64,000 nucleotides of DNA from assembly GCA_003599195.1 (NCBI GenBank), contig QZIZ01000075.1, positions 7,705 through 71,704 of the forward strand, in the 5' to 3' direction. This DNA is from Deltaproteobacteria bacterium. GTDB lineage: Bacteria; Desulfobacterota; Desulfobaccia; Desulfobaccales; 0-14-0-80-60-11. Below, piece by piece: positions 17,477 to 63,566 of this stretch. The stretch's first letter is position 1. Every line of letters begins with the position of its first letter. The position numbers and the translations under genes are program-made. A model generated the notes under the pieces. It saw nothing but the letters and a program-made list of their open reading frames with translations. It ran no database searches and was not told the origin of the DNA.

Positions 17477-17562
17477 CTCACGCAAAGACGCCAAGTCGCA
17501 AAGAAAGGCGCAAGAAATGTTAATAAATCCTTACGCCTCTGCGTCCTCTGCGTCTCTGCGAG
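17477..17562. repeat. RCARAG-arm palindromic element (imperfect)
   Basis: Left arm CTCACGCAAAGACGCCAAGTCGCAAAGAAAGGCGCAAG, right arm CTTACGCCTCTGCGTCCTCTGCGTCTCTGCGAG. The arms are complementary apart from A/G differences. Confidence 0.8.
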
Positions 17563-17580
17563 AAATTATTCTTTGGTTTT

Positions 17581-17615
17581 TACTGGCCACTGGCCACTGG
17601 CCACTGACCACTTTT
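17581..17615. repeat. Heptamer tandem array (CACTGGC type, 5 units) just 5' of the nth RBS
   Basis: TACTGGC CACTGGC CACTGGC CACTGAC CACTTTT. Confidence 0.9.
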
Positions 17616-17631
17616 CTTCTCAGGAGGCCCT

Positions 17632-18279
17632 ATGACCCCCGAGGAAAAAATCGGGCCGGTGCTGAAAATCCTGGATGAGCATTACCCGGACGCCCACGTC
17701 ACCCTGGATTTCACCAACCCCCTGGAGTTGCTGGTGGCCACCGTCTTGTCGGCCCAATGCACCGACGTCCGGGTCAACAAGGAAACCCCAGCCGTCTTCA
17801 AGAAATACCCCGATGCCGCGGCCTATGCCGCCGCGCCCCTGGCGGAGCTGGAGGCGGCCTTTCATCCCACCGGTTTTTTCCGGCAGAAGGCCAAGAGCGT
17901 TCAGGGGATTTGTAAAGCCCTGATGGAGCAGCATGGCGGCCAAGTGCCCGCGTCTTTGGAAGAGTTGGTCAAACTTCCCGGCATCGGCCGCAAGACCGCC
18001 AACGTCATTTTGGGGAACGCCTTCGGCATTCCCGGCATCGTGGTGGACACCCACATGGGCCGGGTCTCCCAGCGCATCGGCCTCACCACCAACCAAGACC
18101 CGGTGAAGATCGAATTCGACCTCATGCCCCTGGTGCCTCAAGAGCGTTGGATCAAATTCTCCCATCAAATGATCTGGCACGGCCGCGCCATCTGCACGGC
18201 CAAGAAACCGCAATGCCCCGTCTGCCCGATTCTGCCGTACTGCGACTACGGCCAACAGGCGGTCTCCGGGGGGCGTTGA
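17632..18279 (+). CDS. nth: Endonuclease III (DNA glycosylase/AP lyase)
   Basis: HhH-GPD motif LVKLPGIGRKTANVILGNAFG and C-terminal 4Fe-4S cluster CTAKKPQCPVCPILPYC. Confidence 0.92.
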   Translation: MTPEEKIGPVLKILDEHYPDAHVTLDFTNPLELLVATVLSAQCTDVRVNKETPAVFKKYPDAAAYAAAPLAELEAAFHPTGFFRQKAKSVQGICKALMEQHGGQVPASLEELVKLPGIGRKTANVILGNAFGIPGIVVDTHMGRVSQRIGLTTNQDPVKIEFDLMPLVPQERWIKFSHQMIWHGRAICTAKKPQCPVCPILPYCDYGQQAVSGGR

Positions 18280-18339
18280 CACTCACTTAAATTCATGGCA
18301 TAAGACAGGGCAATATCGCCCGGAAAAGGGGGAGCGTAA

Positions 18340-18759
18340 ATGATGCTAAAAGATTTGCGGGTAAAGCTGGCGGGACTGCTGGTGGGGCTGCTTTTCATCT
18401 CGGCTTGTGTGCCCATGCTGCTCCTGAGCGCCGGGGGCATGGCCGCCATCGGCACCTATAAATGGGTCGAAGGCACCATGGAGAAGGATTATCCCCGGCC
18501 CATGCAGGAGGTGTGGAACGCCTGCCTGCTGGCCTGCAACGACTTGAAGCTCAAGGTCGCGGGCCAGCAATACGGCCCCTTGGAGTCGAAAATCGAGGCG
18601 GTGCAGCCGCCGGACACCACCGTGAAGATTCAGCTTATCGGCCGGCCCAACCAGATCACCACCGTCAAGGTGCGCTTCGGCATGATGGGCAACCAGGACA
18701 ACTCCGCCTATTTCAACCGCCGGGTCATGCACCACCTGGGGATGCAGCCGGACGCTTAA
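18340..18759 (+). CDS. Putative lipoprotein (DUF3568-like by recollection)
   Basis: Signal/lipobox-like LLFISAC. The remainder is of unknown function. Confidence 0.5.
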   Translation: MMLKDLRVKLAGLLVGLLFISACVPMLLLSAGGMAAIGTYKWVEGTMEKDYPRPMQEVWNACLLACNDLKLKVAGQQYGPLESKIEAVQPPDTTVKIQLIGRPNQITTVKVRFGMMGNQDNSAYFNRRVMHHLGMQPDA

Positions 18760-18795
18760 GGGCTGCTGCGGATAACCATATTAAATCAGGAGATC

Positions 18796-18826
18796 AGGCC
18801 GGGAGCATGGCTTCCGGCCTTTTTTT
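18796..18826 (+). terminator. Rho-independent terminator candidate
   Basis: AGGCCGGGAGC-atg-GCTTCCGGCCT (one mismatch) followed by TTTTTT. Confidence 0.55.
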
Positions 18827-18862
18827 GCCAATTTTCTCTTTCTATGTTAATAAACTTTGTAA

Positions 18863-20398
18863 ATGAAAGACCGTTCTGTTTATTTTCGCCTGGCCGTTCC
18901 TATCCTGCTCTGGGCCATCCTCCTTTTGGTCCTGTATCTTTCAAGCCTTTACAGCTTTCTCCTCTTCCACAGCATCGCCGAAATTTTCAGCATCATCATT
19001 GCCGGCGGGGTCTTTGCCCTGGCCTGGAACTCCCGCCGGGTCATTCATAATAATTATCTGCTCTTCCTGGGCATCGGCCTGCTCTTCATCGCCTTTCTGG
19101 ACCTGATCCACGCTCTGGCCTATAAGGGTATGGGGGTTTTTCCCGGCTACGGCGCCAATCTGCCCACCCAACTCTGGATCGCGGCCCGCTATCTCCAGAG
19201 CCTCACCTTTCTGGCCGCGCCTTTGCTGCTCCATCGCCGCCTCCGGCCCGGACTGGTCTTTTTGGGTTATTTTCTGGCCACCGTCCTTTTACTGCTCGCT
19301 ATTTTCCAGTGGCGGATATTCCCCGACTGCTTTGTGGAAGGCCAGGGACTGACCGCTTTCAAAAAGAACAGCGAATACCTCATCTCCCTGATCCTCCTGG
19401 GCGCCATGGGGCTTTTGCTGCAAAAGAAGCGGGACTTCGACCCTTCGGTCCTGCGCCTCTTGGTAATCTCCATCCTGTTGACCATCGGGTCCGAACTGGC
19501 CTTCACTTTTTACATCAGCGTCTATGGGTTCTCCAACATGGTGGGGCACCTGTTTAAGATCATGGCCTTTTACTGCATCTATAAAGCCATCATCGAGACG
19601 GGCCTGGTGCAGCCCTTTGCCCTGTTGTTCCGGGATCTGAAGCTGCATAAGGAAGAGCTGGAAAAGGACCGGGACACCATCAAAGAGCTTAATGTGGAAC
19701 TCATTAAACGGGTGGAGCAGTTGGAGGCCACCAACCGGGAATTGGAGGCCTTCAGCTACTCAGCCTCCCACGACCTGCAGGCGCCTCTGCGGGCGATTAC
19801 CGGCTTTTCCCAGATATTGCAAGAGGAGTACGTGGATAAACTGGATGAAGAAGCCCGGAAGTTCCTGACCATCATCCAGGACAACAGCCAAAAGATGCGG
19901 CTCCTGATCCGCAGCCTCCTCGATCTTTCCCGCATGGAACGCCGGGAACTGAATATTTGCGAGGTTAATATGGAGGAGCTGGTCTTCTCCGTATTTGCGC
20001 AACAAAACGGCGCCGCGGCCAGAGTTCCCGAATTGACCATCAAACCCCTGCCCCCTGCCCGGGGCGACCTGGTGTTGCTGCGGCAGGTCTTGGACAACCT
20101 CCTGGCCAACGCCCGCAAATTCACCCAAACCCGGGAGGCTCCGGTTATTGAAGTGGGAGGCAGCAGCGATGAGGGTGAGAACGTCTATTACGTCCAAGAC
20201 AACGGCATCGGCTTTGATATGAAGTACGCCGAGAGAATCTTCGAAAGCTTTCAACGCCTTCACAGCGAAGAGCATTTCGCCGGCGCCGGCATCGGCCTGG
20301 CCCTGGTCAGCCGCATCATCCACCGCCATGGCGGCCGGGTCTGGGCGGAGGCAAAACCTGGAGAAGGAGCTGTCTTCTATTTCACCCTGCCCCGGTGA
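18863..20398 (+). CDS. Membrane sensor histidine kinase (multi-TM N-terminal sensor, coiled coil, HisKA, HATPase)
   Basis: About 7 hydrophobic segments, H-box FSYSASHDLQAPLR, N-box LLANARKF, G-boxes DNGIGF and GAGIGLA. Confidence 0.85.
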   Translation: MKDRSVYFRLAVPILLWAILLLVLYLSSLYSFLLFHSIAEIFSIIIAGGVFALAWNSRRVIHNNYLLFLGIGLLFIAFLDLIHALAYKGMGVFPGYGANLPTQLWIAARYLQSLTFLAAPLLLHRRLRPGLVFLGYFLATVLLLLAIFQWRIFPDCFVEGQGLTAFKKNSEYLISLILLGAMGLLLQKKRDFDPSVLRLLVISILLTIGSELAFTFYISVYGFSNMVGHLFKIMAFYCIYKAIIETGLVQPFALLFRDLKLHKEELEKDRDTIKELNVELIKRVEQLEATNRELEAFSYSASHDLQAPLRAITGFSQILQEEYVDKLDEEARKFLTIIQDNSQKMRLLIRSLLDLSRMERRELNICEVNMEELVFSVFAQQNGAAARVPELTIKPLPPARGDLVLLRQVLDNLLANARKFTQTREAPVIEVGGSSDEGENVYYVQDNGIGFDMKYAERIFESFQRLHSEEHFAGAGIGLALVSRIIHRHGGRVWAEAKPGEGAVFYFTLPR

Positions 20399-20399
20399 T

Positions 20400-20478
20400 G
20401 CGGTCTCTGCGTCCTCTGCGTCTCTGCGGTGAACAAAAGGGGGAATTCACCGCAGAGACGCAGAGAGCGCAGAGAATA
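20400..20478. repeat. RCARAG-arm palindromic element, near-identical to 63485-63566
   Basis: GGTCTCTGCGTCCTCTGCGTCTCTGCGGTGAA-caaaaggggg-AATTCACCGCAGAGACGCAGAGAGCGCAGAGAA. It starts 2 nt after the kinase stop codon. Confidence 0.9.
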
Positions 20479-20538
20479 AACTTTTGTTAGAGGTGCGATC
20501 TTCCGATAATGATCTTGAATATTTTAAAGGTGGATTTT

Positions 20539-21573
20539 ATGAAATTTAACCTGCGCCAGTCTAAATTGTGGACCATTTGGCCGGTTTTACTTATTGCCGC
20601 CCTGCTCTCCGTCGCCTCCCAGGCCTATGCCTTCCGGTTCGTGGTCATGGCCGACAGCCCGGACAACGAGACCAATAAAGGGGGGCTCAATCTAGCCTGC
20701 CTGGAATATCTTCGAGGGCAAATCCTGGAGCTGAATCCCCGGCCGGATATGGTGTTTTTTCTAGGCGACCTGGTGACCAAGGCCTACCAGGATTTGGCGG
20801 ACCCGCCCGATCCTGCCAAAAGGCATTATTATATTCCGGATTGGAAAGCAGCCATGGCGCCCCTGGCCCAGGCGGGCGTCAAGATTTACGTGAGCATCGG
20901 CAACCGGGACCTTTATCCGTCTAAGGGCTGGCCGCCTTCCAAAGAAATGGAACAGAAATTTCAGGAAGATTTCTCCGACCCGCCCTATTTCGATATGCCG
21001 GACAACGGCTCCCCCAACTATAAGAAGCTGGCCTATTCCGTGGCCCATGAAAACGCCTTTTTTGTGGTCCTGGACACCTTCGGCTTTAAACCTGACGGCG
21101 CCAACTATGACAACGGTCTGGATGCGGAGCAATTAGCCTGGTTTTCCGGCCAGGCTCGGGGGGCCACACAGAAATTCAAGTTCGCCTTCAGCCACGGCCC
21201 GGCCTTTTCCCCGGAAGGGTTTGCCGTGGGTGATTCAGTGAAAAAAACCATGTGGGGCATCATGGAAGGCGCCCAATTCGACGCCTATTTTTGCGGCCAT
21301 GAACATATCTATTCCCGCTGGGCGATCACCAGAGCGACTGCCCCCTGGATCACCCGCCGCATTACCCAGGTCTTGACCGGGGCCGGGGGCGCCCTGCCGG
21401 ACCAAATCTTTAAAGTAAAACAGGACCGCAGGAAGGTCCACGCCTTTTCTCTTTATAATTACGTGGTGGGGGATGTGAACGAAAACGACGCCCAATTCCA
21501 GGCCGTCGGCGTCGATTGGAATGCGGGGAATTATACCGCCAGGATCATAGATCGTTTTGCGTTGCAGAAATAG
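20539..21573 (+). CDS. Secreted calcineurin-like metallophosphoesterase
   Basis: Signal peptide (LLIAALLSVASQAYA); motifs VVMADSPDN, GDLV, GNRD, GHEH. Confidence 0.8.
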   Translation: MKFNLRQSKLWTIWPVLLIAALLSVASQAYAFRFVVMADSPDNETNKGGLNLACLEYLRGQILELNPRPDMVFFLGDLVTKAYQDLADPPDPAKRHYYIPDWKAAMAPLAQAGVKIYVSIGNRDLYPSKGWPPSKEMEQKFQEDFSDPPYFDMPDNGSPNYKKLAYSVAHENAFFVVLDTFGFKPDGANYDNGLDAEQLAWFSGQARGATQKFKFAFSHGPAFSPEGFAVGDSVKKTMWGIMEGAQFDAYFCGHEHIYSRWAITRATAPWITRRITQVLTGAGGALPDQIFKVKQDRRKVHAFSLYNYVVGDVNENDAQFQAVGVDWNAGNYTARIIDRFALQK

Positions 21574-23738: not shown

Positions 23739-24812
<1,074 letters not shown>

Positions 24813-24818
24813 TTTCAT

Positions 24819-24975
24819 CTGGTTCCCAAGCTGCGCTTGGGAACCCACTTGGCTGCGAAGCTTTGCTTCGCCGGTTATGTATTGGGTAAATTGTCTATGG
24901 TGCTTGTAACTAGCCCGGCCAAGCAGAGCTTGGCCTCCAAGTGCGTTCCCAAGCGGAGCTTGGGAACGAGAAGAG
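24819..24975. mobile_element. MITE-like element, copy 1 (terminal inverted hairpins GGTTCCCAAGC...GCTTGGGAACC)
   Basis: Left end CTGGTTCCCAAGCTGCGCTTGGGAACCCACTTGGCTGCGAAGCTTTGCTTCGC. Right end CCAAGCAGAGCTTGGCCTCCAAGTGCGTTCCCAAGCGGAGCTTGGGAACGAG. Second copy at 36989-37132. Confidence 0.8.
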
Positions 24976-25559: not shown

Positions 25560-25580
25560 AACGTAAACCTCTTAAAAACA

Positions 25581-25709
25581 GTTTTTAGTTTTTGGTTTTT
25601 AGTAAAACAAATGCCTTCCTCGGCCAATTCAAGAAGCAACCGGCTTCCCTCGCCAGAGATGGTTTAACTTTTAATGATAACTTAAAACTAAAAACTAAAA
25701 ACCAAAAAC
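25581..25709. repeat. Inverted pair of heptamer arrays bracketing the infC-rpmI intergenic core
   Basis: GTTTTTA GTTTTTG GTTTTTA (25581-25601) versus TTAAAAC TAAAAAC TAAAAAC CAAAAAC (25682-25709), about 80 nt apart. Confidence 0.9.
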
Positions 25710-28159: not shown

Positions 28160-28173
28160 GCTTCGCCTCTAAT

Positions 28174-28218
28174 AAAAAAAGGCACCTCGGGCGTCCTCAA
28201 GAACTCTCCCCAGATGCC
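28174..28218 (-). promoter_or_regulatory. Terminator-like hairpin plus U7 tract inside the thrS leader (candidate attenuator)
   Basis: Minus strand: GGCAUCUGGG...CCCGAGGUGCC stem (one G-U pair and one bulge) followed by UUUUUUU, ending 14 nt before the thrS AUG. Confidence 0.4.
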
Positions 28219-28390
28219 GTTTCATTCTTACATAAATAGATTCACGGATGCTGCCGTGCTGCTCCTCATTCCCCCAGGCAAGCTTCACCCACTGAGTAAT
28301 AATTCAGCTCATTATTTCGCATAAATACCCGGCCAAGTCAAGCATTTTTACTTTTTTAAAGTGCTGTAGAAGATGAAAAAGAGAAAAATA

Positions 28391-28513
28391 ATTAACCACA
28401 AAGACACAAAGACCACGGAGGTTGACAGAGGAAAAGATTTTTGGATTGGCGCTAGCGCCAATCCAAAATACTATCTCTGTGCATCTCTGTGCCCTCTGTG
28501 TCTCCGTGGTAAA
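28391..28513. repeat. RCARAG-arm palindromic element (ACAGAG/ACAAAG variant) with central GC hairpin
   Basis: Arms TTAACCACAAAGACACAAAGACCACGGAGG... and ...CTCTGTGCCCTCTGTGTCTCCGTGGTAAAT. Core TTTTGGATTGGCGC-ta-GCGCCAATCCAAAA (28437-28466). Confidence 0.85.
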
Positions 28514-28593
28514 TCTTTTTCCTTTATCGCTTATTGCCTTAGCTCCGGAAAACAGAAAAAGATTTTTTATTTCAGTGACTCCGGAGAAAAGAA

Positions 28594-28738
28594 CCCCCTC
28601 CCCCTTCGAGGGGGGAGGGTTGGGGTGGGGGTGGCGTCTTTTTTCTTAGGAAACAACCCATTGCTGCCCAAGAAGCCCCCCTCACCCTACACCCATTCCC
28701 CCGAGGGGAGAGGGGATTAATACTGGAATATCCATATG
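28594..28738. repeat. Two CCCTCTCCC-type hairpin-element copies
   Basis: CCCCCTCCCCC-ttcga-GGGGGGAGGGTTGGGGTGGGGGTGG (28594-28635) and CCCCCCTCACCCTACACCCATTCCCCCGAGGGGAGAGGGGATTAATACTGGAATATCCATATG (28676-28738). Confidence 0.85.
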
Positions 28739-28871
28739 ATAAAAACTTACTGGTAATAAACAGACCCCTTTGGGAGCAGTTCGTTGGGCCGAATCTTTTT
28801 CAATAGTCTCCAGAGGAATGAGTTAAACCGGAGTTAAGGCAGTAATCGGTTTCCTTTTAGTTCCCCTGGAC

Positions 28872-28900
28872 TTGACAGGATGAAACCGCTACAGTAAATG
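28872..28900 (+). promoter_or_regulatory. Sigma-70-type promoter candidate for the transglycosylase gene
   Basis: TTGACA, a 17-nt spacer, then TAAATG, 39 nt upstream of the ATG at 28939. Confidence 0.3.
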
Positions 28901-31524: not shown

Positions 31525-31626
31525 GGGATAAGTCAGTATTATTTCCCCTTCCCATCGGGGGCTAATCATTACCCAGAAATGGGGGGAAATGGATAATTAG
31601 GGAATAGAGTCTTTGCGGACCTCGCG

Positions 31627-31821
31627 CCCCCCTCACCCTGCCCTCTCCCCCCTCCGGGGGGAGAGGGAATTGCCGGGCTTATCCATAAGATACAACCTTA
31701 TGGTTAACGGCTGGCCCCCAAGAGGAGAGGGCAATGCTCGGCATACCTATGAATAATAACTTATGGATATTCCAGTATTAATCCCCTCTCCCCTCGCGGG
31801 AGAGGGAAAGGGTGAGGGGGG
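31627..31821. repeat. Inverted pair (plus partial third copy) of CCCTCTCCC-type elements
   Basis: 31627-31689 CCCCCCTCACCCTGCCCTCTCCCCCCTCCGGGGGGAGAGGGAATTGCCGGGCTTATCCATAAG. 31760-31821 CTTATGGATATTCCAGTATTAATCCCCTCTCCCCTCGCGGGAGAGGGAAAGGGTGAGGGGGG, which is the reverse orientation of 28676-28738. Confidence 0.85.
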
Positions 31822-33384: not shown

Positions 33385-33503
33385 CTCACGCAAAGACGCC
33401 AAGGCGCAAAGACGCAAGATAAAATTTTAAGGGGTAGGGCTGAAGCCGCACCCCTTAAAAATTTCTTGCGTCTTATCTTTGCGTCTTTGCGTCTTTGCGT
33501 GAG
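33385..33503. repeat. RCARAG-arm palindromic element (GCAAAG variant) with central hairpin TTTTAAGGGGT...ACCCCTTAAAA
   Basis: CTCACGCAAAGACGCCAAGGCGCAAAGACGCAAG ... CTTGCGTCTTATCTTTGCGTCTTTGCGTCTTTGCGTGAG. Core hairpin at 33425-33460. Confidence 0.9.
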
Positions 33504-34834: not shown

Positions 34835-35017
34835 TTTCTCTGCGCCCTCTGCGTCTCTGTGGTTATTATTTTTTACCGCAGAGACGCAGAGAACGCAGAG
34901 GAAATTTATGGGCAATAAAATATGACGCTCTAGATAAAAGTTAAGGGGTACGGCTGAAGCTGCACCCCTTAAAATTTCTCGCGCCTTTCTTTGCGTCTCT
35001 GCGCCTTTGCGAGAAAC
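34835..35017. repeat. Composite of one full RCARAG palindrome, a second copy of the TTAAGGGGT...ACCCCTTAA hairpin and a single arm
   Basis: 34835-34903 TCTCTGCGCCCTCTGCGTCTCTGTGG...CCGCAGAGACGCAGAGAACGCAGAGG. Hairpin at 34941-34974. Arm at 34976-35017. Confidence 0.85.
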
Positions 35018-36988: not shown

Positions 36989-37132
36989 CTGGTTCCCAAG
37001 CTCCGCTTGAGAACCCACTTGGATGCGAAGCTCTGCTTCGCTTCCCCGGCGGTAATTATTCGGCTACCGCCTAAAAACCAAGCAGAGCTTGGCTGACAAG
37101 TGCGTTCCCAAGCAGAGCTTGGGAACGAGGAG
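36989..37132. mobile_element. MITE-like element, copy 2 (same termini as 24819-24975, different core)
   Basis: CTGGTTCCCAAGCTCCGCTTGAGAACCCACTTGGATGCGAAGCTCTGCTTCGC ... CCAAGCAGAGCTTGGCTGACAAGTGCGTTCCCAAGCAGAGCTTGGGAACGAG. Confidence 0.8.
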
Positions 37133-38428: not shown

Positions 38429-38489
38429 GTAGGGGCGAACCTTGTGTTCGCCCTGTAACGTCCGGGGCGAACACAAGGTTCGCCCCTAC
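38429..38489. repeat. Perfect 25-bp inverted repeat with nested hairpins
   Basis: GTAGGGGCGAACCTTGTGTTCGCCC-tgtaacgtcc-GGGGCGAACACAAGGTTCGCCCCTAC. Each arm is itself a hairpin (GGGCGAAC...GTTCGCCC). Confidence 0.9.
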
Positions 38490-38737: not shown

Positions 38738-38778
38738 AAAAACCCCCACGTTTAAAGAATTAAAGATACCGATATGGG

Positions 38779-38841
38779 CCACTGATCACTGATCACTGAT
38801 TACTGATTACTGATCACTGGCCCCTGACCCCTGGCCACTCT
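38779..38841. repeat. Heptamer tandem array (9 units, YCACTGA type) abutting the ruvA stop codon
   Basis: CCACTGA TCACTGA TCACTGA TTACTGA TTACTGA TCACTGG CCCCTGA CCCCTGG CCACTCT. Confidence 0.9.
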
Positions 38842-40810: not shown

Positions 40811-40845
40811 ACCGAAGACCGTAGACCGCAGACCGAAGACCGTCA
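40811..40845. repeat. Heptamer tandem array (ACCGNAG, 5 units) abutting the ruvC stop codon
   Basis: ACCGAAG ACCGTAG ACCGCAG ACCGAAG ACCGTCA. Confidence 0.9.
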
Positions 40846-42071: not shown

Positions 42072-42095
42072 CGGGCTTGCTCCTTAAATGATTTT

Positions 42096-42218
42096 ACCAC
42101 AGAGGCACAGAGAGCACAGAGTTTCACAGAGAATTTGATAATTTCCTTTGACGCCAAGGCGTCAAAGGAAATTACAATTTACCTCTGTGAATCTCTGTGT
42201 CCTCTGTGTCTTTGTGGT
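42096..42218. repeat. RCARAG-arm palindromic element (ACAGAG variant) with central hairpin
   Basis: ACCACAGAGGCACAGAGAGCACAGAGTTTCACAGAG ... CTCTGTGAATCTCTGTGTCCTCTGTGTCTTTGTGGT. Core ATTTCCTTTGACGCC-aa-GGCGTCAAAGGAAAT (42141-42171). Confidence 0.9.
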
Positions 42219-42855
42219 GAATCTTTTTTTTATTCAACGCCAGCAGGTAAATCTCCTTGCTGGCCGCGCGGGAGCCCGGGGGCTTCACCCGGCGGCAGAC
42301 CTTAAAACCGGCCTCCAATTCCCGGACCAGGGCCCCCACTCCAGGCCCTTCGAAGACCTTCACCAGAAAAAATCCCCCGGGCCTGAGCACCCTTTTGGCC
42401 CACTCCCAGGCGGCCAGTGCCAGGTCCAGCGAGCGCTGCTGGTCTACCTCCCTGATGCCCGTGGTCCTGGGGGCCATGTCGCTGACCACTGCGTCAAAAA
42501 AATCACTGACCGCCCTGACGGCCTCCAGATCCAGGCCGCTCACGTCCCCGGGCACGAAGTATACGGGCGGCGCCACCTTAATGGCGGGCGGATTCACGTC
42601 CACCCCCACCACCAAACCGCCCGCGCCCACCCGGGAGGCCAGGTATTGCAGCCAGGAACCGGGAGAGCATCCCAGGTCCAACACCTTTTGTCCCGGCTGG
42701 AACAGGCGGTGTTTTTCGTCCAGCGCCTTTAATTTATATATGGCCCGGGCCACGTATCCTTCGGTCCGGGCTTGGTCGCGGTAGGGGTCGGGCACCCCGG
42801 GGCGGGGCATGATAAAGCGCCTATCTGGGTAAATTAACTGGATTTCTTTTACCAT
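42172..42855 (-). CDS. rlmE: 23S rRNA (uridine-2'-O)-methyltransferase RlmE/FtsJ; last about 16 codons and the stop lie inside the repeat element
   Basis: GYVARAIYKLKALDEKHRLFQPGQKVLDLGCSPGSWLQY (SAM motif I) and DVVVSDMAP. Start at 42855 (MVKEIQ) or 42807 (MPRPG). Confidence 0.85.
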   Translation of the reverse strand: MVKEIQLIYPDRRFIMPRPGVPDPYRDQARTEGYVARAIYKLKALDEKHRLFQPGQKVLDLGCSPGSWLQYLASRVGAGGLVVGVDVNPPAIKVAPPVYFVPGDVSGLDLEAVRAVSDFFDAVVSDMAPRTTGIREVDQQRSLDLALAAWEWAKRVLRPGGFFLVKVFEGPGVGALVRELEAGFKVCRRVKPPGSRAASKEIYLLALNKKKIHHKDTEDTEIHRGKL

Positions 42856-42881: not shown

Positions 42882-42944
42882 GCAGTAGCCAGTGGCCAGT
42901 AGCCAGTAGCCAGTAAACAGCAATCAATGATCAGTGATTAATCG
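42882..42944. repeat. Heptamer tandem array (CCAGTRG type, 9 units) upstream of rlmE
   Basis: GCAGTAG CCAGTGG CCAGTAG CCAGTAG CCAGTAA ACAGCAA TCAATGA TCAGTGA TTAATCG. This is the reverse complement of the CACTGGC family. Confidence 0.9.
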
Positions 42945-47327: not shown

Positions 47328-47332
47328 AAGAT

Positions 47333-47403
47333 GGTTTTCGGTTTCCGGTTTTCGGTTTTCGGCAAAATGAAAACCGGAAACCGAAAACTAAAAACTAAAA
47401 ACG
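47333..47403. repeat. Inverted heptamer arrays forming a long hairpin between fliR and flhB
   Basis: GGTTTTC GGTTTCC GGTTTTC GGTTTTC gg-caaaat-GAAAACC GGAAACC GAAAACT AAAAACT AAAAACG. Confidence 0.9.
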
Positions 47404-47412
47404 GTCTCTAAA

Positions 47413-54643: not shown

Positions 54644-54647
54644 GGCA

Positions 54648-54696
54648 GTTTTTAGTTTTTAGTTTTTAGTTCGAAGAAGTCTAGGGTCTTCAGTCT
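54648..54696. repeat. Heptamer tandem array (GTTTTTA x3 drifting to NNAGTCT) 5 nt after the operon's last stop codon
   Basis: GTTTTTA GTTTTTA GTTTTTA GTTCGAA GAAGTCT AGGGTCT TCAGTCT. Confidence 0.9.
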
Positions 54697-54918: not shown

Positions 54919-54979
54919 TCGGAAAAAACTTTTGGCAACAAATACCAATCATGATCCAATCTTATCGATATTTTCATAA

Positions 54980-55014
54980 CTTGGAACCTGGAACCTGGAA
55001 CTTGGAACTTTCTA
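54980..55014. repeat. Heptamer tandem array (CYTGGAA, 4-5 units) upstream of ade
   Basis: CTTGGAA CCTGGAA CCTGGAA CTTGGAA CTTTCTA. Confidence 0.9.
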
Positions 55015-55035: not shown

Positions 55036-56754
55036 ATGGATATCAACAAATGGCAACAGCGCCTTAAAGCCGCGCGGGGCGAAATCCCCGCGGACCTGGT
55101 GCTCACCGGCGGGCAGGTGGCCTGCGTCTATTCCGGGCAGTGGCTTAAAAAAGACGTGGCCGTATTTGACGGCGTCATCATCGGCCTGGGGGATTACTCC
55201 GGCCCCCGCGTCGACATTTCCGGCCGCTATCTCCTGCCGGGCCTGATCGACGGCCATCTGCATCTCGAAAGCAGCATGCTCACCCCCCGGGAACTGGCCC
55301 GGGCCCTGCTGCCCCTGGGCGCCACCACGGTGGTGGCCGACCCCCATGAAATCGCCAATGTCTTGGGGGCCAAAGGGTTGGATTATATCCTGGCCGCAAG
55401 CGACGGCCTGCCTCTGGACCTCTTCTTCATGCTCCCTTCCTGCGTCCCCGCTTCGCCCCTGGAGACCGCAGGCGCGGCGCTGGAAGCTGCGGATCTTAAA
55501 CCTTACATAAACCATCCCCGGGTCCTAGGCCTGGCGGAAGTGATGAATTTCCCGGGAGTGGTGTCCGGGGACCCGGGCCTGTTGGAGATGATCGCCCTCT
55601 TTCCCCAGCGGGCGGTGGACGGCCATGCTCCCCTGCTGTCCGGCAAGGACCTGAACGCCTACCGCCTGGCGGGCGTCAATTCCGATCATGAATGCACCAA
55701 TGCCCCGGAAGCATTGGAAAAATTGGAGATGGGCTTTTACGTCCAGGTCCGGGAAGGCAGCCTGGCCAAAAATTTGGCGGACCTGTTGCCGGTAGTGACA
55801 CCCGCCTCGATCCGGCGCACCATGCTGGTTACCGACGATTGCCACCCCGCGGACCTGTTGGAAAACGGCCACCTCAACCATCTCCTGCGCCTGGCGGTGT
55901 CCCGGGGTCTGGACCCCCTGGCCGCCGTCACCATGGCCACCCTCAACCCCGCGGAATACTTCGGACTGAAGGACCGGGGCGCGATCGCGCCGGGTTTGGC
56001 CGCGGACCTGGTGATAGTAAAAGACCTCAAAGAATTCCGCGTCGACAAGGTTCTGAAAAACGGCAAAATTGTGGTGGATGGCGGCCGCCTGACCGCTGAA
56101 CCGGTGATCCCCCCCTACCCTGCCCCTCCTCCGGCCATGAACGTCAAGATGCCGGGAGCGGACGCCCTTTTTCCCATCGCCACCGACGATATGGTCAAAG
56201 TCATCGGTCTCATCCCCGGCCAATTGCTCACGGAAAAACGGATTTTGCCCGCGCCGCTCCATAACGGCCGCCTGGCCGCGGACCCGGCCCGGGATCTTTT
56301 GAAACTGGCGGTCCTGGAGCGCCACCGCGCCACCGGCAACCTGGGACTCGCCCTGGTCCAGGGCTTCGGCCTAAAACAGGGCGCCCTGGCCTCCACCGTG
56401 GCCCATGATTCCCACAACATCGTGGCGGTGGGGGCCGATGAAACGGACATGCTCCTGGCCATGGAGCATCTGGTGAAACTTAAGGGCGGCCTGGCCGTGG
56501 CCGCCGGCGGCCGGGTGCTGGCGGACCTGGCGCTCCCCATCGCCGGTCTCATCAGCCCCGAGCCCCTGGAGGCCGTGGCCGCGGCCTACGGCCGCCTCCT
56601 GGAAGCCTACCGCCAACTGGGAGGAGGGCTCCCCGACCCCTTCATGGCCCTCTCCTTTTTGGCCCTGCCGGTAATCCCGGCTTTAAAACTGACGGACCTG
56701 GGGCTGGTGGACGTGAATAAGTTTGAGGTGGTGCCGCTTTTCGGGGAAGATTAG
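55036..56754 (+). CDS. ade: Adenine deaminase
   Basis: PGLIDGHLHLESSML metal-binding motif and full-length Ade layout (VVADPHEIANV, DGHAP, SDHE, THDSHNIV). Confidence 0.9.
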   Translation: MDINKWQQRLKAARGEIPADLVLTGGQVACVYSGQWLKKDVAVFDGVIIGLGDYSGPRVDISGRYLLPGLIDGHLHLESSMLTPRELARALLPLGATTVVADPHEIANVLGAKGLDYILAASDGLPLDLFFMLPSCVPASPLETAGAALEAADLKPYINHPRVLGLAEVMNFPGVVSGDPGLLEMIALFPQRAVDGHAPLLSGKDLNAYRLAGVNSDHECTNAPEALEKLEMGFYVQVREGSLAKNLADLLPVVTPASIRRTMLVTDDCHPADLLENGHLNHLLRLAVSRGLDPLAAVTMATLNPAEYFGLKDRGAIAPGLAADLVIVKDLKEFRVDKVLKNGKIVVDGGRLTAEPVIPPYPAPPPAMNVKMPGADALFPIATDDMVKVIGLIPGQLLTEKRILPAPLHNGRLAADPARDLLKLAVLERHRATGNLGLALVQGFGLKQGALASTVAHDSHNIVAVGADETDMLLAMEHLVKLKGGLAVAAGGRVLADLALPIAGLISPEPLEAVAAAYGRLLEAYRQLGGGLPDPFMALSFLALPVIPALKLTDLGLVDVNKFEVVPLFGED

Positions 56755-56976
56755 TTCAAAGTTCAAGGTTCAAGGTTCAAGGTTCAAGGTTCAAGGTTCA
56801 AGGTTCAAGGTCATGAAGCTTTAACCTTGAACTTTGATGGCACTGTAAAAAGTCAGAAAATTGCCGATTTTTTGAAATTGCTATTAATAAAATCAGCCAC
56901 TTAAAATATGATCCTGGAAATTTCCGACTTTTTACCAGGGCATCAACTTTGAACCTTGAACCTTGAACTCTTAACT
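56753..56976. repeat. Nested inverted-repeat region: (RGTTCAA)x8 array, inner inverted repeat, then (TTGAACY)x3-4 array
   Basis: 56753-56808 AGTTCAA x2 plus GGTTCAA x6. 56821-56837 TTAACCTTGAACTTTGA. Inner inverted repeat TGTAAAAAGTCAGAAAATT (about 56845) versus GGAAATTTCCGACTTTTTACC (about 56916). 56943-56976 TTGAACC TTGAACC TTGAACT CTTAACT. Confidence 0.9.
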
Positions 56977-56991
56977 CATAACGGAGGCGCT

Positions 56992-59403: not shown

Positions 59404-59431
59404 CGTTTTCAGTTTTCTGTTTTCTGTTTTC
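59404..59431. repeat. Heptamer tandem array (NGTTTTC, 4 units)
   Basis: CGTTTTC AGTTTTC TGTTTTC TGTTTTC. Confidence 0.9.
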
Positions 59432-59488
59432 TGATGGAACCTGCATTATATATAGATTATGGCAAGTTCTAAAAATTCCTTCCTTTTA

Positions 59489-59530
59489 TTCCCCCTTCCC
59501 CCATGGGGGGGCCGTGGTGAGGGGGGGGTG
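59489..59530. repeat. CCCTCTCCC-type hairpin element copy (degenerate)
   Basis: TTCCCCCTTCCCCCATGGGGGGGCCGTGGTGAGGGGGGGG. Confidence 0.8.
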
Positions 59531-59560
59531 ATAGATGCCCCCCCAATAAAGCTCAAAATC

Positions 59561-60649
59561 ATGACCACGAATTGCAAAAAAATCCTCCTGGTCGCAGGGG
59601 CCCGGCCGAATTTCATGAAAATTGCGCCCCTGTTGCGCGTCATCGACCAGTCGTACTTTGATCGCCTGCGCCCCATAATCGTGCATACGGGCCAGCACTA
59701 TGATTATGAGATGTCCCAGGCCTTTTTTGAGGATTTACAGATCAAGCGCCCTGATTACTTCCTGGGGGTAGGCCCCGGCTCCCACGCGGTCCAGACCGCC
59801 ATGATCATGACGGCTTTCGAAGAAGTCTGCCTCCGGGAGATCCCTGATCTGGTGGTGGTGGTGGGAGACGTCAACTCCACCCTGGCCTGCGCCCTGGTGG
59901 CTAAAAAAATGGGCATCCGGGTGGCCCACGTGGAAGCCGGCCTGCGAAGCCGGGACCTGACCATGCCCGAGGAAATCAACCGCATGGTGACCGACGTGCT
60001 GGCCGATTACCTTTTTGTGTCCGAAAGGAGCGGCTTGGCCAACTTGTGGCAGGAAGGCAGACCCCCGGAGGCCATCCACTTTGTGGGCAATGTCATGGTG
60101 GACACCCTTTATTTGCAGTTGGCCTCTCTGGAAGAGACTCACGCCAACCGGCCTGAGCCTTATGCCGTGCTCACCCTGCACCGCCCCGCCAACGTGGATG
60201 TGGCTAGCAAACTCCTGGAGATCATGGACGCCGTCGCGGTGATCGCCCGGGACCTGCCGGTGGAGTTCCCCGCGCACCCCCGCACCCGGCAGCGCCTGGA
60301 GGCCCTGGATTTAACGGCCGGCCTCACCGGCCGGGGCATCAATTTATTGCCGCCTTTGCCTTATAAGACTTTTTTGCGGCTTTGGAAGGACGCGGCCCTG
60401 GTGCTGACGGACAGCGGCGGCCTGCAAGAGGAGACCACGGCCCTGGGCGTGCCCTGCATCACCATCCGGGACAATACGGAGAGGCCGGTGACCGTCGCCG
60501 AAGGGACCAACATCCTGGCGGGCACGGATTATCAGGGAATCATCACCGCATACGAAACTTTCAAGTCCACCGGCGGCAAAAAAGGGCGGGTCCCCGAACT
60601 CTGGGACGGCCAGGCCGCAGCCAGGATTGTGGCCATCCTTGCCAAATAA
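59561..60649 (+). CDS. wecB: UDP-N-acetylglucosamine 2-epimerase (non-hydrolysing)
   Basis: KILLVAGARPNFMKIAPL...HTGQHYDYEMSQAFFEDL...DSGGLQEE is canonical. The track N-terminal extension (59459) is spelled by the repeat element. Confidence 0.92.
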   Translation: MTTNCKKILLVAGARPNFMKIAPLLRVIDQSYFDRLRPIIVHTGQHYDYEMSQAFFEDLQIKRPDYFLGVGPGSHAVQTAMIMTAFEEVCLREIPDLVVVVGDVNSTLACALVAKKMGIRVAHVEAGLRSRDLTMPEEINRMVTDVLADYLFVSERSGLANLWQEGRPPEAIHFVGNVMVDTLYLQLASLEETHANRPEPYAVLTLHRPANVDVASKLLEIMDAVAVIARDLPVEFPAHPRTRQRLEALDLTAGLTGRGINLLPPLPYKTFLRLWKDAALVLTDSGGLQEETTALGVPCITIRDNTERPVTVAEGTNILAGTDYQGIITAYETFKSTGGKKGRVPELWDGQAAARIVAILAK

Positions 60650-60689
60650 CCCGTATGCTCCTAAATTTGAAAGGTTCATCTCCGTATAT

Positions 60690-60728
60690 TTGCGCCTTTC
60701 TTTGCGTTTTGGCGTCTTTGCGTGAGAA
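60690..60728. repeat. Single arm of the RCARAG (GCAAAG) element directly upstream of the glycosyltransferase start
   Basis: TTGCGCCTTTCTTTGCGTTTTGGCGTCTTTGCGTGAGAAT. Confidence 0.8.
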
Positions 60729-60737
60729 TATCTTTTC

Positions 60738-61898
60738 ATGACCCGCAACAAGATCAAAATCGTTCACCTCATCACCTCCTTCTGGGCCAACCACGGTCCC
60801 AGCAGCGCCTTGTTGACCCAGATCCGGAGCCATGACCCCGGAGAATTCGCCTTTTCCATCTGGTCTCTCTATGCGCCGCCGCCGGCGCAAGATCCACGGG
60901 ACCTCCTTTTGAGAAACGGCATAGAACACCGGGTCCTGCCCATGTCCGCGTCCTTTTTGGATGTGCGGGTGCTTACGCCCCTGGTGCGGCTGCTGCGCCG
61001 GGAGCGCCCGGACATCCTCCACTGCCACCTGCTGCGGGCCAATCTCTACGGACGGTTTGCCGGCCGCTTGGCCGGAGTCGCCAAGATCGTCAATACCATC
61101 CACGGTGTCGATGAATACATGGTCCGCGGGGATTTTACCTCCCGTTCCCTGCGGCTGGCGGAGCGCCTCAGCGCGCCTCTGGTCTCCCGCTACGTGGCGG
61201 TTTCGGAAAACGCCCGGCAGGCGGTCGTCGAACGCCTGAAAATCCCCCCCGGCCGGGTTTCCACCATTCTCAACGCCCTGGATTTGGATCCCTTTCGGCA
61301 ACCGGAAGCCGGCCGCAGAGCCCTCAGGGCGGAGTTGGGCCTGTCCCCGGACGCAGTGGTCATCGGCTCCGTGGGCCGCCTGGCGCCTTTGAAAAATCTT
61401 GCCTTTCTTATAGAGCAGATGAAAGAACTTGCCGTCTCCTTCCCTCAGGCCGAGCTGGTGATCATCGGCGAGGGGCCGGAGCGCCCGGCCCTGGAGAACC
61501 TCATCGCCGCGCTCAACCTGGGGGATAAGGTGCGCCTCCCCGGTTTCCGGGCCGATATTCCCCGGATGCTCCCGGCCCTGGACCTCTTTGCCTTCCCTTC
61601 CCTTTCGGAGGGACTATCCATTGCCCTTTTGGAGGCCATGGCCGCGGGTCTTCCCTGTGTGGTCATGGACGTGGGCGGCAACGGAGAAGCCGTGGCGCAT
61701 GGACATACGGGTTACGTGGTCCCCTATGGGGACTCTTCCGCCTTCGCGTCCGCCCTCTCACACCTCTTAAAAGACGCAAGTCTAAGAAAAAAGCTGGGGA
61801 CGGCTGGAAAAAATCGCGCATTTACGCTATTTAATCCACAGCGTCTGGCTACACAATATGAAGAACTTTACTTCTCGCTCCTGAACCGGCGTCCTTAA
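60738..61898 (+). CDS. Glycosyltransferase family 4 (GT-B, GT1 clan)
   Basis: C-terminal EGLSIALLEAMAAGLPCVV (E-x7-E region) and overall GT4 layout. Confidence 0.88.
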   Translation: MTRNKIKIVHLITSFWANHGPSSALLTQIRSHDPGEFAFSIWSLYAPPPAQDPRDLLLRNGIEHRVLPMSASFLDVRVLTPLVRLLRRERPDILHCHLLRANLYGRFAGRLAGVAKIVNTIHGVDEYMVRGDFTSRSLRLAERLSAPLVSRYVAVSENARQAVVERLKIPPGRVSTILNALDLDPFRQPEAGRRALRAELGLSPDAVVIGSVGRLAPLKNLAFLIEQMKELAVSFPQAELVIIGEGPERPALENLIAALNLGDKVRLPGFRADIPRMLPALDLFAFPSLSEGLSIALLEAMAAGLPCVVMDVGGNGEAVAHGHTGYVVPYGDSSAFASALSHLLKDASLRKKLGTAGKNRAFTLFNPQRLATQYEELYFSLLNRRP

Positions 61899-61912
61899 GT
61901 GTTAAGGCGGAG

Positions 61913-63424
61913 ATGACTATGCCCTGGTGGGCCGTGGGCTTCCTGATAATTTTCGGTTTCACCGTGACCTACGCGGCCATTCCCGCGGCCAAGAGATTGG
62001 CCCTGCGCTGGGACCTGGTCGCACCTCCCGGAGGCAGGCGCAACCATGCCCAGGATACCCCGTTAACCGGGGGTTGGACTCTTTTTCTCCCCTTGGCCGG
62101 GGCCTTCCTGATCTTTTTTGCGTTGGCCCTGACCGGCAGGCTCACGGTGTTGCACCCCGAATGGGGGCGGATGTTATCCCTGTTTTTAGGGACCACCTGG
62201 ATTCTAATCCTGGGCACCATCGACGACCGCCTGGTCATCCCCTGGAAACAGAAGCTGGCCGGCCAGGTCTTGGGAGCCCTCATTCTGGTCATCGGCGGCC
62301 ATACCGTGTCCGTAGCCAACCTCCCCTGGCTGGGCACGGTGTGGTTCGGCTGGTTCGGCATCCCCTGCTTTATCATTGCCGTCATCACCATCACCAACGC
62401 CATCAATCTCATTGACGGCCTCGACGGCCTGGCCGGGGGCATCTGTTTTTTTGCGGCCCTGACCAGCGCCGTCATCGCCCTGGTGAAAGGGGATTACTTC
62501 ATCGCCACCCTCGGCTTCACCCTTTCCGGCAGCCTCCTGGGATTCTTGAGGTTTAATTTCCCCCCGGCTTCCATCTTCCTGGGCGACGGCGGCTCCATGA
62601 TGCTCGGCTTCCTGCTGGGCACTTTGGCCATCAGTTCCACCGCCTTCTTCCCGGGCCAGCGCCTGGGCACCAGCATCATGATCGTGGCGCCCTTCCTGCC
62701 CTTGGGCATCCCCCTCTTTGAAGTGGCCCTGTCCATTATCAGAAGATGGATCACCGGCCAGGCCATCTTCCTGGCGGACGGCAACCATCTGCATCATCGC
62801 CTGATGAGCAAAATCAAGGCCCCGCGGGCCACGGTGGCCATCTTTTATTTTTTCAGCGCCTCTCTCTGCGCCCTGACCCTGCTTATGGTGCTGGAAGTCC
62901 GATCTCCCGTGCTCCGCTTCTTGACGGCCTTTCTCACCCTGGGCCTGATGGTGGCGGTCACCTGGTCCATCCGGCTCTATGGCGACCGGGGCCTCGTGCT
63001 CACCCTGCGGAACCGGCCCCATTTCAAGTTTCTGGGAGAATTTCTCCGCTTTATGACCCTCAAGGCCGGCAGGGCCAAATCCGTCACCGATCTTTTGGCT
63101 CTACTGGAATCAGGTGTCAGGGACCTGGATTTTGACAATGTCGAGATTGTCTATAAAGAACAACCCCTCAGGAAATGGATCAACCCTCAACCTGCGCATC
63201 CGCAAAGCCCTCGCCTGGTCTCCGAAGAATCCTTCAACGGCTGGCACCTGCGGATCAAATGGGCCCAACCCCTGCATAAAGACGAAAATTATAACGAATA
63301 TCTCCTGTTGACCTGGCGCCGTTTTTTAAACACCATCAAGGCCGCGCTGCCCTCCCGGCCCCAAGAGCTGCCGCCTTGGAACGACGCGGCCCCGGCGTCC
63401 GCAAATCCAAAAATCCCTGAATAA
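61913..63424 (+). CDS. Polyprenyl-phosphate N-acetylhexosamine-1-phosphate transferase (WecA/MraY family) with long C-terminal extension
   Basis: NAINLIDGLDGLAGG and FLGDGGSM motifs. About 150 extra C-terminal residues of unknown function. Confidence 0.85.
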   Translation: MTMPWWAVGFLIIFGFTVTYAAIPAAKRLALRWDLVAPPGGRRNHAQDTPLTGGWTLFLPLAGAFLIFFALALTGRLTVLHPEWGRMLSLFLGTTWILILGTIDDRLVIPWKQKLAGQVLGALILVIGGHTVSVANLPWLGTVWFGWFGIPCFIIAVITITNAINLIDGLDGLAGGICFFAALTSAVIALVKGDYFIATLGFTLSGSLLGFLRFNFPPASIFLGDGGSMMLGFLLGTLAISSTAFFPGQRLGTSIMIVAPFLPLGIPLFEVALSIIRRWITGQAIFLADGNHLHHRLMSKIKAPRATVAIFYFFSASLCALTLLMVLEVRSPVLRFLTAFLTLGLMVAVTWSIRLYGDRGLVLTLRNRPHFKFLGEFLRFMTLKAGRAKSVTDLLALLESGVRDLDFDNVEIVYKEQPLRKWINPQPAHPQSPRLVSEESFNGWHLRIKWAQPLHKDENYNEYLLLTWRRFLNTIKAALPSRPQELPPWNDAAPASANPKIPE

Positions 63425-63484
63425 AGGGGGCCTCCACCATCCAGATAATGAGGCTTTTGCAAAATTAATATTTATCCTGATTTT

Positions 63485-63566
63485 CTCCGCGTTTCCTCTG
63501 CGTCCTCTGCGTCTCTGCGGTTAAAAAGGGAGAATTCACCGCAGAGACGCAGAGAGCGCAGAGGAA
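63485..63566. repeat. RCARAG-arm palindromic element, near-identical to 20400-20478
   Basis: CCGCGTTTCCTCTGCGTCCTCTGCGTCTCTGCGGTTAAAAAGGGAGAATTCACCGCAGAGACGCAGAGAGCGCAGAGGAAAG. Confidence 0.9.

Follow-up and report, generated by a model that had tools for sequence, protein, structure and literature searches.

What kind of repeat is scattered among the genes of a 64,000-nucleotide stretch of a Deltaproteobacteria bacterium genome (GenBank assembly GCA_003599195.1, contig QZIZ01000075.1, positions 7,705 to 71,704; hereafter the window), and what might it do there? A preliminary description had reported a family of palindromic elements with arms made of short purine-rich units, and had left three options: elements resembling repetitive extragenic palindromes (REPs) and bacterial interspersed mosaic elements (BIMEs), non-autonomous mobile elements, or structured RNA genes. 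Here, we found that the family, which we call octamer elements, consists of an ordered arm module that forms long hairpins when paired, is patchily distributed over phyla and turns over among relatives without target-site duplication. From the sequence and its gene context we propose that it is a repeat family similar to BIMEs and to hairpin-forming REP doublets (REPINs), whose copies may act as long bidirectional transcript-end hairpins, that is, as terminators combined with barriers to 3'-exonucleases; we regard this reading as evenly poised between right and wrong.

All nine sites (Table 1) were confirmed, with letters matching the description. Six of them were recovered independently by an inverted-repeat scan (the hits I4, I5, I7, I8, I16 and I20 in Table 1), and the 8-9-nt units by Tandem Repeats Finder. 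Two-unit patterns, CRCRRAGRCRCRRAG and CRCRRAGRNCRCRRAG (the latter with one extra base), had 15 and 11 matches in the window, against 0.01 expected for each from dinucleotide shuffles, and every one of the 26 matches fell within the listed elements. The predicted hairpins had folding energies of -29 to -88 kcal/mol (z -4.2 to -16 versus shuffles). All copies were intergenic, except that the rlmE ORF (open reading frame) reads into c6. Positions 1-57735 of the window also match a Joint Genome Institute metagenome contig (Ga0104756_1000323), which ends there, with c7 and c8 lying beyond; the window thus derives from a more extended assembly of this organism. The idea that the copies are chance low-complexity sequence or an assembly artefact, which has nothing but the simple composition of the arms in its favour, is already refuted by these results: besides the excess of two-unit matches, orthologous sites in independent assemblies hold the same elements, and the module is present in the cultured isolates Geothrix limicola and Lyngbya sp.

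The preliminary description was right in seeing one repeat family with purine-pattern arms that vary by transitions. The basic unit, however, is not a palindrome but a strand-asymmetric arm module of about 30-40 nt, which comprises a head followed by three to four CRCRRAGR units. The heads TTCACC and TTTACC had been given as the start of every arm; TTAACC also occurs, and the copies with CGCAAAGA units start with CTCAC. The module occurs in three arrangements: with the heads outside and a variable centre between the arms (c1, c3, c4 and c6), with the heads inside and a loop of 10-12 nt (c2, c5a and c7), or alone (c5b and c8). Thus, GGTGAA/TTCACC, previously counted as a fourth kind of central hairpin, is simply the place where two arm heads meet in the head-to-head form. 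Similarly, the region 34835-35017, which had been taken as one copy, proved to be a composite of the head-to-head hairpin c5a followed by the REP-like hairpin and the arm that make up c5b.

The 8-9-nt units had been described correctly, but their tandem arrangement is not free. Spacing in the arms of the window and its relatives was 8 nt from the first to the second unit (all 21 arms), 9 nt (13 arms) or 8 nt (seven arms) from the second to the third, and 10-11 nt from the third to the fourth (eight out of eight). The same ordered spacing (8, 8-9, then 11 where a fourth unit exists) was observed in other phyla and in viral contigs, and a profile of 140 arms from other genomes showed that conservation stops about 30 nt from the head. 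Within the units, positions C1, C3, A6 and G7 were invariant and variation was restricted to transitions. The purine strand is essentially free of T and its complement free of A, so that no stop codon is possible on either strand in any frame. This is consistent with the rlmE (FtsJ) ORF (42172-42855, - strand), which has lost its own stop, crosses the right arm of c6 and runs for about 16 codons into the element (...KKKIHHKDTEDTEIHRGKL*) before stopping in the c6 centre; of its 227 residues, the RlmE profile covers those up to about 210.

Pairing between the arms is maintained as well. Covariation was strong within CRCR (for unit position 2, 46 AT, 24 GC, four GT and one AC combinations in 75 elements) and weak at the last base of the units, which tends to form a 1x1 mismatch. 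The loci collected from other genomes contained 66 heads-out and eight heads-in pairs, as well as multi-arm clusters (for example, L027, L086 and L101). Heads-out pairs spanned 47-192 bp, and their centres, of 10-170 nt, were unrelated to each other. Arm pairs 260-740 bp apart enclosed ordinary genes (GNAT-like, GxxExxY-like or encoding a secreted protein); because heads-out pairs bracket whole small genes, the centre can be gene-sized. Two such cases from other phyla are L143 2620-3130 and L039 1480-2310, where heads-out pairs surround genes for a GxxExxY/PD-(D/E)XK-like protein and a GNAT-like acetyltransferase.

Table 1. Octamer elements in the window, with positions counted from its first base
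Copy	Position	Strand	Form and arms	Predicted fold	Gene setting
c1	17476-17563		heads-out (tail-to-tail) pair; AT-rich centre without GC hairpin; left arm CTCAC + CGCAAAGA/CGCCAAGT/CGCAAAGAAAGG/CGCAAGAAAT, right arm of CGCAGAG type	- strand -48 kcal/mol (z -7.7), + strand -29 (z -4.2)	left head 13 nt past stop of ORF 16907-17467
c2	20403-20475		heads-in (head-to-head) hairpin: pyrimidine arm, GGTGAA, 12-nt loop, TTCACC, purine arm; unit spacing 8 then 9	-56 kcal/mol, z -10.3; 30-nt arms 93% complementary (I8)	begins about 5 nt past stop of MASE3 histidine-kinase gene, ends 33 nt ahead of next start
c3	28391-28513		heads-out pair, CACAAAG/CACGGAG/CACAGAG type; central hairpin GGATTGGCGC/GCGCCAATCC at 28439-28468	z -10.7 and -11.3 (I20)	divergent SLT-thrS spacer, immediately upstream of conserved thrS promoter and apparent leader
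c4	33385-33503		heads-out pair, CTCAC + CGCAAAGA units; REP-like hairpin TTAAGGGGTAGGGC...GCCGCACCCCTTAA at 33424-33460	-78.5 kcal/mol, z -14.5 (I5)	between convergent cbiQ and amino-acid permease genes; heads 13 and 10 nt past their respective stops
c5a	34835-34903		heads-in hairpin	-48 kcal/mol, z -11.1 (I16)	purine arm (- strand) terminates 16 nt ahead of permease start codon
c5b	34940-35017	-	single purine arm 34976-35017, then REP-like hairpin 34940-34972; partner arm absent		arm 13 nt past PEPCK stop (- strand)
c6	42093-42221		heads-out pair; four CACAGAG units per arm (spacing 8, 9, 10); hairpin TTTCCTTTGACGCC/GGCGTCAAAGGAAA at about 42141-42171	+ strand -88.5 kcal/mol (z -16), - strand -75.4 (z -12.4) (I4)	overlaps end of rlmE
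c8	60690-60728	-	single arm CTCAC + CGCAAAGA/CGCCAAAA/CGCAAAGAAAGG/CGCAAAT	weak alone: -4.8 and -8.5 kcal/mol	between two co-directional + strand glycosyltransferase genes; 41 nt from stop codon
c7	63492-63567		heads-in hairpin	-55.8 kcal/mol, z -9.5; 33-nt arms 91% complementary (I7)	about 70 nt from stop codon

The position of the copies relative to genes argues for a function at transcript ends. The earlier statement that most copies sit right after stop codons holds for c1, c2, c4, c5b and c6, and fails for c3, c7 and c8. Where heads lie just past stops, as in c1, c4 and c5b, the distance is confined to 10-13 nt. Across the window and its syntenic relatives, five of the ten heads-out settings were convergent spacers, three were tandem and two fell in one divergent spacer. 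In the 14 nt beyond the heads, the fraction of T was 0.36 versus 0.21 expected, on both strands and in every GC class, whereas A was not enriched. Runs of T8, T5 and T5 adjoin c6, c3 and c4, respectively; in c6 the run follows GGTGAATC on the + strand, and c3 has T-rich tracts beyond both ends, one per strand. No T tract accompanied the heads-in copies. Post-stop position, enrichment in convergent spacers, T tracts on both strands and maintained pairing are therefore the grounds on which a transcript-end role is suggested.

In such a role, the transcript of the upstream gene would end in a heads-out pair, with the purine arm starting 10-13 nt past the stop. Beyond the centre, the pyrimidine arm would pair back on the purine arm to give a 25-40-bp stem broken at the unit junctions, often topped by another GC-rich hairpin (REP-like in one of its kinds) and followed by a U-rich tract. 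The opposite strand would behave alike because the palindrome has A-rich and T-rich flanks. A heads-out element might then serve as a long-stem bidirectional terminator and a 3'-exonuclease barrier that insulates neighbouring genes. A plain role in stabilisation or processing, in the spacers of co-directional genes, is more likely for the heads-in hairpins. REPs have been reported to stabilise mRNA, to terminate transcription and to affect translation (PMC6006769).

It should be noted that several observations weigh against this proposal. Runs of at least four T were found in just 23-28% of heads-out flanks. A simple promoter and terminator scan, whose sites were no more frequent than in shuffled sequence, flagged only the centre of c3 (- strand) as a terminator, and c3 lies between divergent genes, where a terminator has no obvious client. 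For c1 and c6, which are located between tandem genes, the strand that folds better (by virtue of G-U pairs) is antisense to the flanking genes. For a family placed near REPINs, no mobilising enzyme (a transposase or REP-associated tyrosine transposase, RAYT) could be found among the Pfam-annotated genes of the window between 3.6 and 57.7 kb. Single arms, which are unable to form a hairpin, are nevertheless conserved, sense-oriented and often just upstream of start codons in phage-like contigs, implying that the module probably has a sequence-specific role beyond a pure hairpin model. In addition, the invariant C1, C3, A6 and G7 together with the restriction to transitions represent more constraint than pairing needs. 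The single arms and the invariant positions thus keep alive the two alternatives weighed below, a selfish element and an array of binding sites.

The great stability of the folds is also what could be expected of independent small structured RNA genes, one of the options considered at the outset. We now consider this option very improbable. At the gathering threshold, Rfam yielded a single tRNA and no other family in the window, and the matches obtained at an E-value threshold were generic miRNA-precursor long hairpins far below the cut-offs. Promoter-like sites adjoining the elements were not found by the simple scan, the elements fold on both strands, and there is no conserved RNA core because the centres are unrelated between copies.

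We compared the window with syntenic loci in five related genomes (L021-L024 and L147; ThrRS identity 85-96%). By its ThrRS homologues, the source of the window belongs to Thermodesulfobacteriota, close to Desulfobaccales. The presence/absence polymorphism at orthologous sites that the preliminary description had proposed to look for was found. Its view of interchangeable centres was borne out directly in the SLT-thrS spacer, where the outer arms are kept in the window (c3), L021 and L147 and enclose three different centres: the GGATTGGCGC hairpin in the window, a GCTTTGGCGC hairpin in L021 in which two compensatory pairs differ, and in L147 a non-palindromic segment plus (CACTGAC)3 heptamers in place of part of one arm. 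In L024 this spacer has no element. Downstream of PEPCK, five genomes retain an element composed of a REP-like hairpin with an arm on either side, corresponding to c5b in the window and to its orthologs in L021-L024. Alignment of c4 with the latter gave a mean column identity of 78%, two pairs of the inner hairpin show compensatory change, and the flanking spacer could not be aligned. The interval between PEPCK and cbiQ is variable and contains nothing, a lipase-like gene or small ORFs, and a permease gene in the window. The segment 33510-35022, which carries this permease gene and c5a, is present only in the window genome and is bracketed by direct repeats of about 80 nt, c5b being an approximately 88% identical repeat of the - strand arm and REP-like hairpin of c4.

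Other spacers show that distinct hairpin repeats substitute for each other at the same gene boundaries. Between the amidohydrolase and DUF6812 genes, a plain GC hairpin occupies the spacer in three relatives, a heads-in octamer hairpin in L021 and a G/C-rich palindrome in the window; between RuvA and the methylase, L021 has an octamer pair, and the window a GTAG REPIN plus heptamers. The G/C-rich palindromic element (CCCTCTCCCC...GGGGAGAGGG / GGGTGAGGGG type) occurs twice in the window, at about 31560-31810, where it fills the amidohydrolase-DUF6812 spacer, and at about 28560-28890, where it constitutes an insertion of about 330 bp in the SLT-thrS spacer relative to L021 and L147. Adjacent to c3, the upstream region of thrS (28160-28350, - strand) is kept in three to four genomes. 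It contains a promoter-like box, TTGACT, as well as a hairpin (GGCATCTGGGG...CCCGAGGTGCC) with T7 after it, immediately ahead of the start codon, and looks like a transcription-attenuation leader; no Rfam match was obtained for it at the gathering threshold.

The near-identity of c2 and c7 (arms identical at 28/30 and 29/30 positions), previously thought to imply recent spread, needs another interpretation. Their arm sequence, TTCACCGCAGAGACGCAGAGRRCGCAGAG, recurs in L021, a different genome, as well as in other phyla and phage-like contigs. In its arms, c5a aligns with both copies and with L021:6965-7029. Arm identity is thus the mark of a constrained consensus rather than a date for a duplication; a sister relationship between c2 and c7 is hinted at solely by their similar loops.

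Copies occur far beyond the window and its relatives. The module was identified in at least ten bacterial phyla plus phage-like contigs, at GC contents of 37-71%. A degenerate pattern of the head and two units matched at least 120 stretches in GTDB species genomes, and a 23-base arm pattern matched 19 IMG/VR contigs (GC 41-71%). Carriers among the matches listed include Acidobacteriota, Planctomycetota, Chloroflexota, Verrucomicrobiota (including Kiritimatiellia and Victivallales), Armatimonadota, Thermodesulfobacteriota, Alpha-, Beta- and Zeta-proteobacterial groups, SAR324, Desantisbacteria, the Lyngbya isolate and the isolate Geothrix limicola Red804, in which a heads-out copy is present; one Methanotrichaceae metagenome-assembled genome (MAG) is also among them, for which binning contamination is possible. 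The distribution is patchy, being locally dense in some genomes, whereas other environmental genomes lack the module: no arm of at least three units was found in 80 unrelated metagenome loci (441 kb), which had been matched by the histidine kinase adjoining c2 and comprise almost only distant paralogues, versus 15 in the 64-kb window. The choice between G and A at variable positions barely follows genome GC (rho 0.25).

In the phage-like contigs, one of which encodes a DnaB-like helicase and a replication initiator, single arms in sense orientation occupy the short intervals from one stop to the start that follows. In this orientation, 12 of 21 cases had a stop no more than 30 nt upstream and 12 of 24 had a start no more than 40 nt downstream, compared with 3 of 22 and 5 of 20 on the opposite strand; ORF-based orientation analysis is noisy in high-GC loci, where a stop before the head cannot be separated from shadow ORFs. 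Searches of the open-access full-text literature with arm sequences of 12-15 nt returned only PCR primers, and blastn of c2 against phage and plasmid collections gave no match, probably since the low-complexity filter masks the query. The repeat is apparently undescribed in the open-access literature and in Rfam.

On the basis of these data, the family would behave as REPIN/BIME-type non-autonomous repeats with fast turnover between relatives and no target-site duplication. Its centres may serve as landing pads for other small elements and its copies as recombination substrates beside gene-sized indels, and the module may plausibly have moved between phyla on the phage-like elements that contain it. 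We also examined direct repeats at the boundaries of 73 pairs (k = 2-9, ten boundary offsets) and found no target-site duplication above chance level, which contradicts the option of a classical non-autonomous miniature inverted-repeat transposable element (MITE) with terminal inverted repeats (TIRs).

The same observations could be explained by a selfish non-autonomous mobile element, in which a HUH/Y1-like enzyme or a recombinase acting without target-site duplication copies the module near gene ends, phages and plasmids carry it between phyla, and any terminator-like effect is incidental. The patchy but locally dense occurrence, the near-independence of arm sequence from genome GC, the presence or absence between close relatives, the occurrence in phage-like contigs and arms that lack stops in every one of the six frames and, as rlmE shows, permit read-through all fit such an element, as does the lack of target-site duplication, a feature of REPINs and IS200/IS605; the ordered 8/9/10-11 spacing common to the phyla suggests common descent. 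On the other hand, the lack of a transposase or RAYT gene noted for the annotated 54 kb of the window extends to the surroundings of arm clusters in L033, L037, L067, L086 and L095, and no arm pair around a transposase gene was found in the loci compared. The persistence of orthologous copies with compensatory changes over 85-96% ThrRS identity, as well as the strand-specific T tract in the flanks, points to host-side selection. We therefore judge a purely selfish element unlikely, although it overlaps with the transcript-end explanation and does not exclude it. Two enzyme systems were considered as candidates and rejected. Class-3 TnpA-Y1 proteins occur in the same phyla (reportedly for the most part in Planctomycetes and Acidobacteria, with about 600 associated repeats in Solibacter), but their REP-like repeats, CAGAGCCGCGACCGTTAGGGAGCG, are unrelated to the arms, and the GGGGWSAS motif of TIRYT is likewise unrelated.

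The conserved, partnerless single arms between a stop and the next start lead to another possibility, namely that the module is an array of three to four sites for a conserved sequence-specific nucleic-acid-binding protein, which might be a cold-shock or S1 OB-fold binder on the pyrimidine strand or a factor on the purine strand. Such an array could tune translation, termination or mRNA decay, with pairing masking or unmasking the sites. A fixed number of units with ordered spacing, the four invariant unit positions and the same sequence over phyla whatever their GC would agree with this possibility. The pyrimidine unit GTCTTTG coincides with the heptamer that Bacillus subtilis CspB is reported to bind with high affinity. 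A precedent is provided by the intergenic arrays of TAACTGA heptamers, which were found in three distantly related groups just upstream of starts and for which S1, Csp and CsrA have been proposed as binders (PMC4679880). However, a universal binder predicts a universal motif, which the 441 kb of unrelated bacterial loci do not contain. Moreover, mRNAs with sense single arms carry the purine strand rather than the Csp-like pyrimidine strand, and the units are at most partly similar to Shine-Dalgarno sequences, the CGCAAAGA type not at all. A binding array consequently appears quite improbable. Shine-Dalgarno arrays as such were set aside on account of the CGCAAAGA type, and nothing supported a resemblance to parS, DnaA boxes, integron attC sites, invertons, the tRNA T-loop or the 16S 3' end. 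In a more general form, the module (TTCACC plus three CRCRGAGR units, spaced 8, 9 and 10-11 nt) might be the recognition element of either a conserved mobilising enzyme or a binding regulator, which we put forward only as a tentative and somewhat unlikely suggestion.

With regard to known repeats, REP/BIME-like elements, the first of the three original options, are the closest in behaviour, and yet the defining features of REPs fail. Like REPs, BIMEs and REPINs, the octamer elements are short, abundant intergenic repeats near gene ends that sometimes extend or enter ORFs and leave no target-site duplication. REPs are found as single copies, in clusters and as hairpin-forming inverted dimers, head-to-head or tail-to-tail, with 1-100 bp between the partners (PMC3733652), and the octamer family likewise occurs as inverted doublets, singletons and clusters in intergenic DNA. 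In contrast, the REP unit is itself a stem-loop, whereas the octamer monomer is a purine-only arm that does not fold alone. REPs bear a foot tag of GTAG, GTGG or CGTC instead of the head TTCACC, TTTACC or CTCAC found in the window and among the 140 arms, and the internal periodicity of 8-9 nt is specific to the octamer arm. A RAYT gene would be expected beside REPs, and none was seen here among the annotated genes of the window or near arm clusters. REP super-families span several phyla. What is shared over phyla is only the 4-nt tag in REPs, but a whole 30-nt sequence in the octamer family.

True REP-like sequences are also present in this lineage. One listed GTAG REP (GTAGGGGCACGGC...GCCGTGCCC) is similar to the inner hairpin of c4 and c5b. 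At 38429-38489, a perfect 25-nt inverted doublet, GTAGGGGCGAACCTTGTGTTCGCCC / GGGCGAACACAAGGTTCGCCCCTAC, represents a classical GTAG REPIN, and the same type is located at about 4920-4990 of L147, a 96%-related MAG, between rplT and pheS. This REPIN is clearly a different family from the octamer elements, and its presence in the window and a relative suggests a RAYT-type system in the lineage.

Comparison with other systems gave a similarly mixed picture. TIR-type MITEs (for example, Correia/NEMIS, ERIC, RUP and Nezha) are, like the octamer elements, intergenic elements of 70-190 bp with a variable interior, hairpin-forming transcripts and insertion polymorphism, and heads-out pairs do possess terminal inverted repeats of about 30 nt. 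Unlike in MITEs, no target-site duplication was found at any tested boundary, no autonomous insertion sequence with the same ends was found among the arm pairs compared (260-740 bp), the octamer "TIR" is also found alone and heads-in, and the family is not confined to one genus. Short tandemly repeated repetitive sequences (STRRs) and TAACTGA heptamers resemble the octamer elements as intergenic arrays of two to six short units that occur with the same unit in distant phyla, often near starts, with a suspected regulatory binder and a transfer mechanism that is not known (PMC4679880). They are plain direct 7-nt repeats in variable number, whereas octamer copies are mostly inverted pairs with long hairpins, and have 8-nt units fixed at three to four, a widening ordered spacing and a conserved head. 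Finally, bidirectional intrinsic terminators are likewise palindromic stem-loops past stops, often convergent, that are A-rich on the 5' side and T-rich on the 3' side. Octamer stems, which consist of a conserved repeated module, are several times longer (25-40 bp, to which the inner hairpin is added). Only a minority of copies show a clean U run, and terminator features are lacking from the heads-in and single-arm forms.

Accordingly, the new aspect is best filed as a modular octamer arm with cross-phylum sequence conservation within the kind of dispersed hairpin repeats, its function and spread being suggested by context. Such repeats have an influence on transcription units, on the stability of mRNA and on genome rearrangement, and also on gene annotation, since they create spurious ORFs and extend real ones. 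Within the window, the elements mark gene boundaries, the ends of a gene-sized indel and spacers in which repeat families replace one another. As a rule, a REP or MITE is confined to one species or genus. It is therefore unusual that the same 30-nt sequence and spacing occur in Thermodesulfobacteriota, Acidobacteriota, Planctomycetota, Chloroflexota, Verrucomicrobiota, several Pseudomonadota classes and phage-like contigs. This breadth implies either horizontal spread by some mechanism or a conserved trans-acting partner, and both possibilities are directly testable because the motif is easily scanned and present in at least one cultured organism. If the module were indeed a recognition element, it would define a new and so far unnamed super-family of prokaryotic dispersed repeats, with a breadth comparable to REP/RAYT and including phages.

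For c8, we looked for a partner arm and found none within 250 nt. Besides the octamer elements, the window contains intergenic tandem arrays of heptamers at 17582-17612, 24784-24811, 25580-25709, 38777-38839, 40811-40842, 42883-42915, 47329-47407, 54647-54671, 54978-55010, 56750-56979 and 59405-59433, with the units ACTGGCC, CGCTTTT, AGTTTTT/AACTAAA, CACTGAT, ACCGAAG, CAGTAGC, GGTTTTC/GAAAACC, AACTTGG, GTTCAAG (eight copies) and GTTTTCT. These arrays resemble cyanobacterial STRRs, and several of them are inverted around a variable centre, like the octamer elements. A second family of composite palindromes was found at 24815-24974, downstream of pheS, and at 36989-37129, upstream of PEPCK; its arms of 55-60 nt are made of small hairpins (GTTCCCAAGC-NNNN-GCTTGGGAAC and GCGAAGC-NNNN-GCTTCGC) and are 82-85% complementary.

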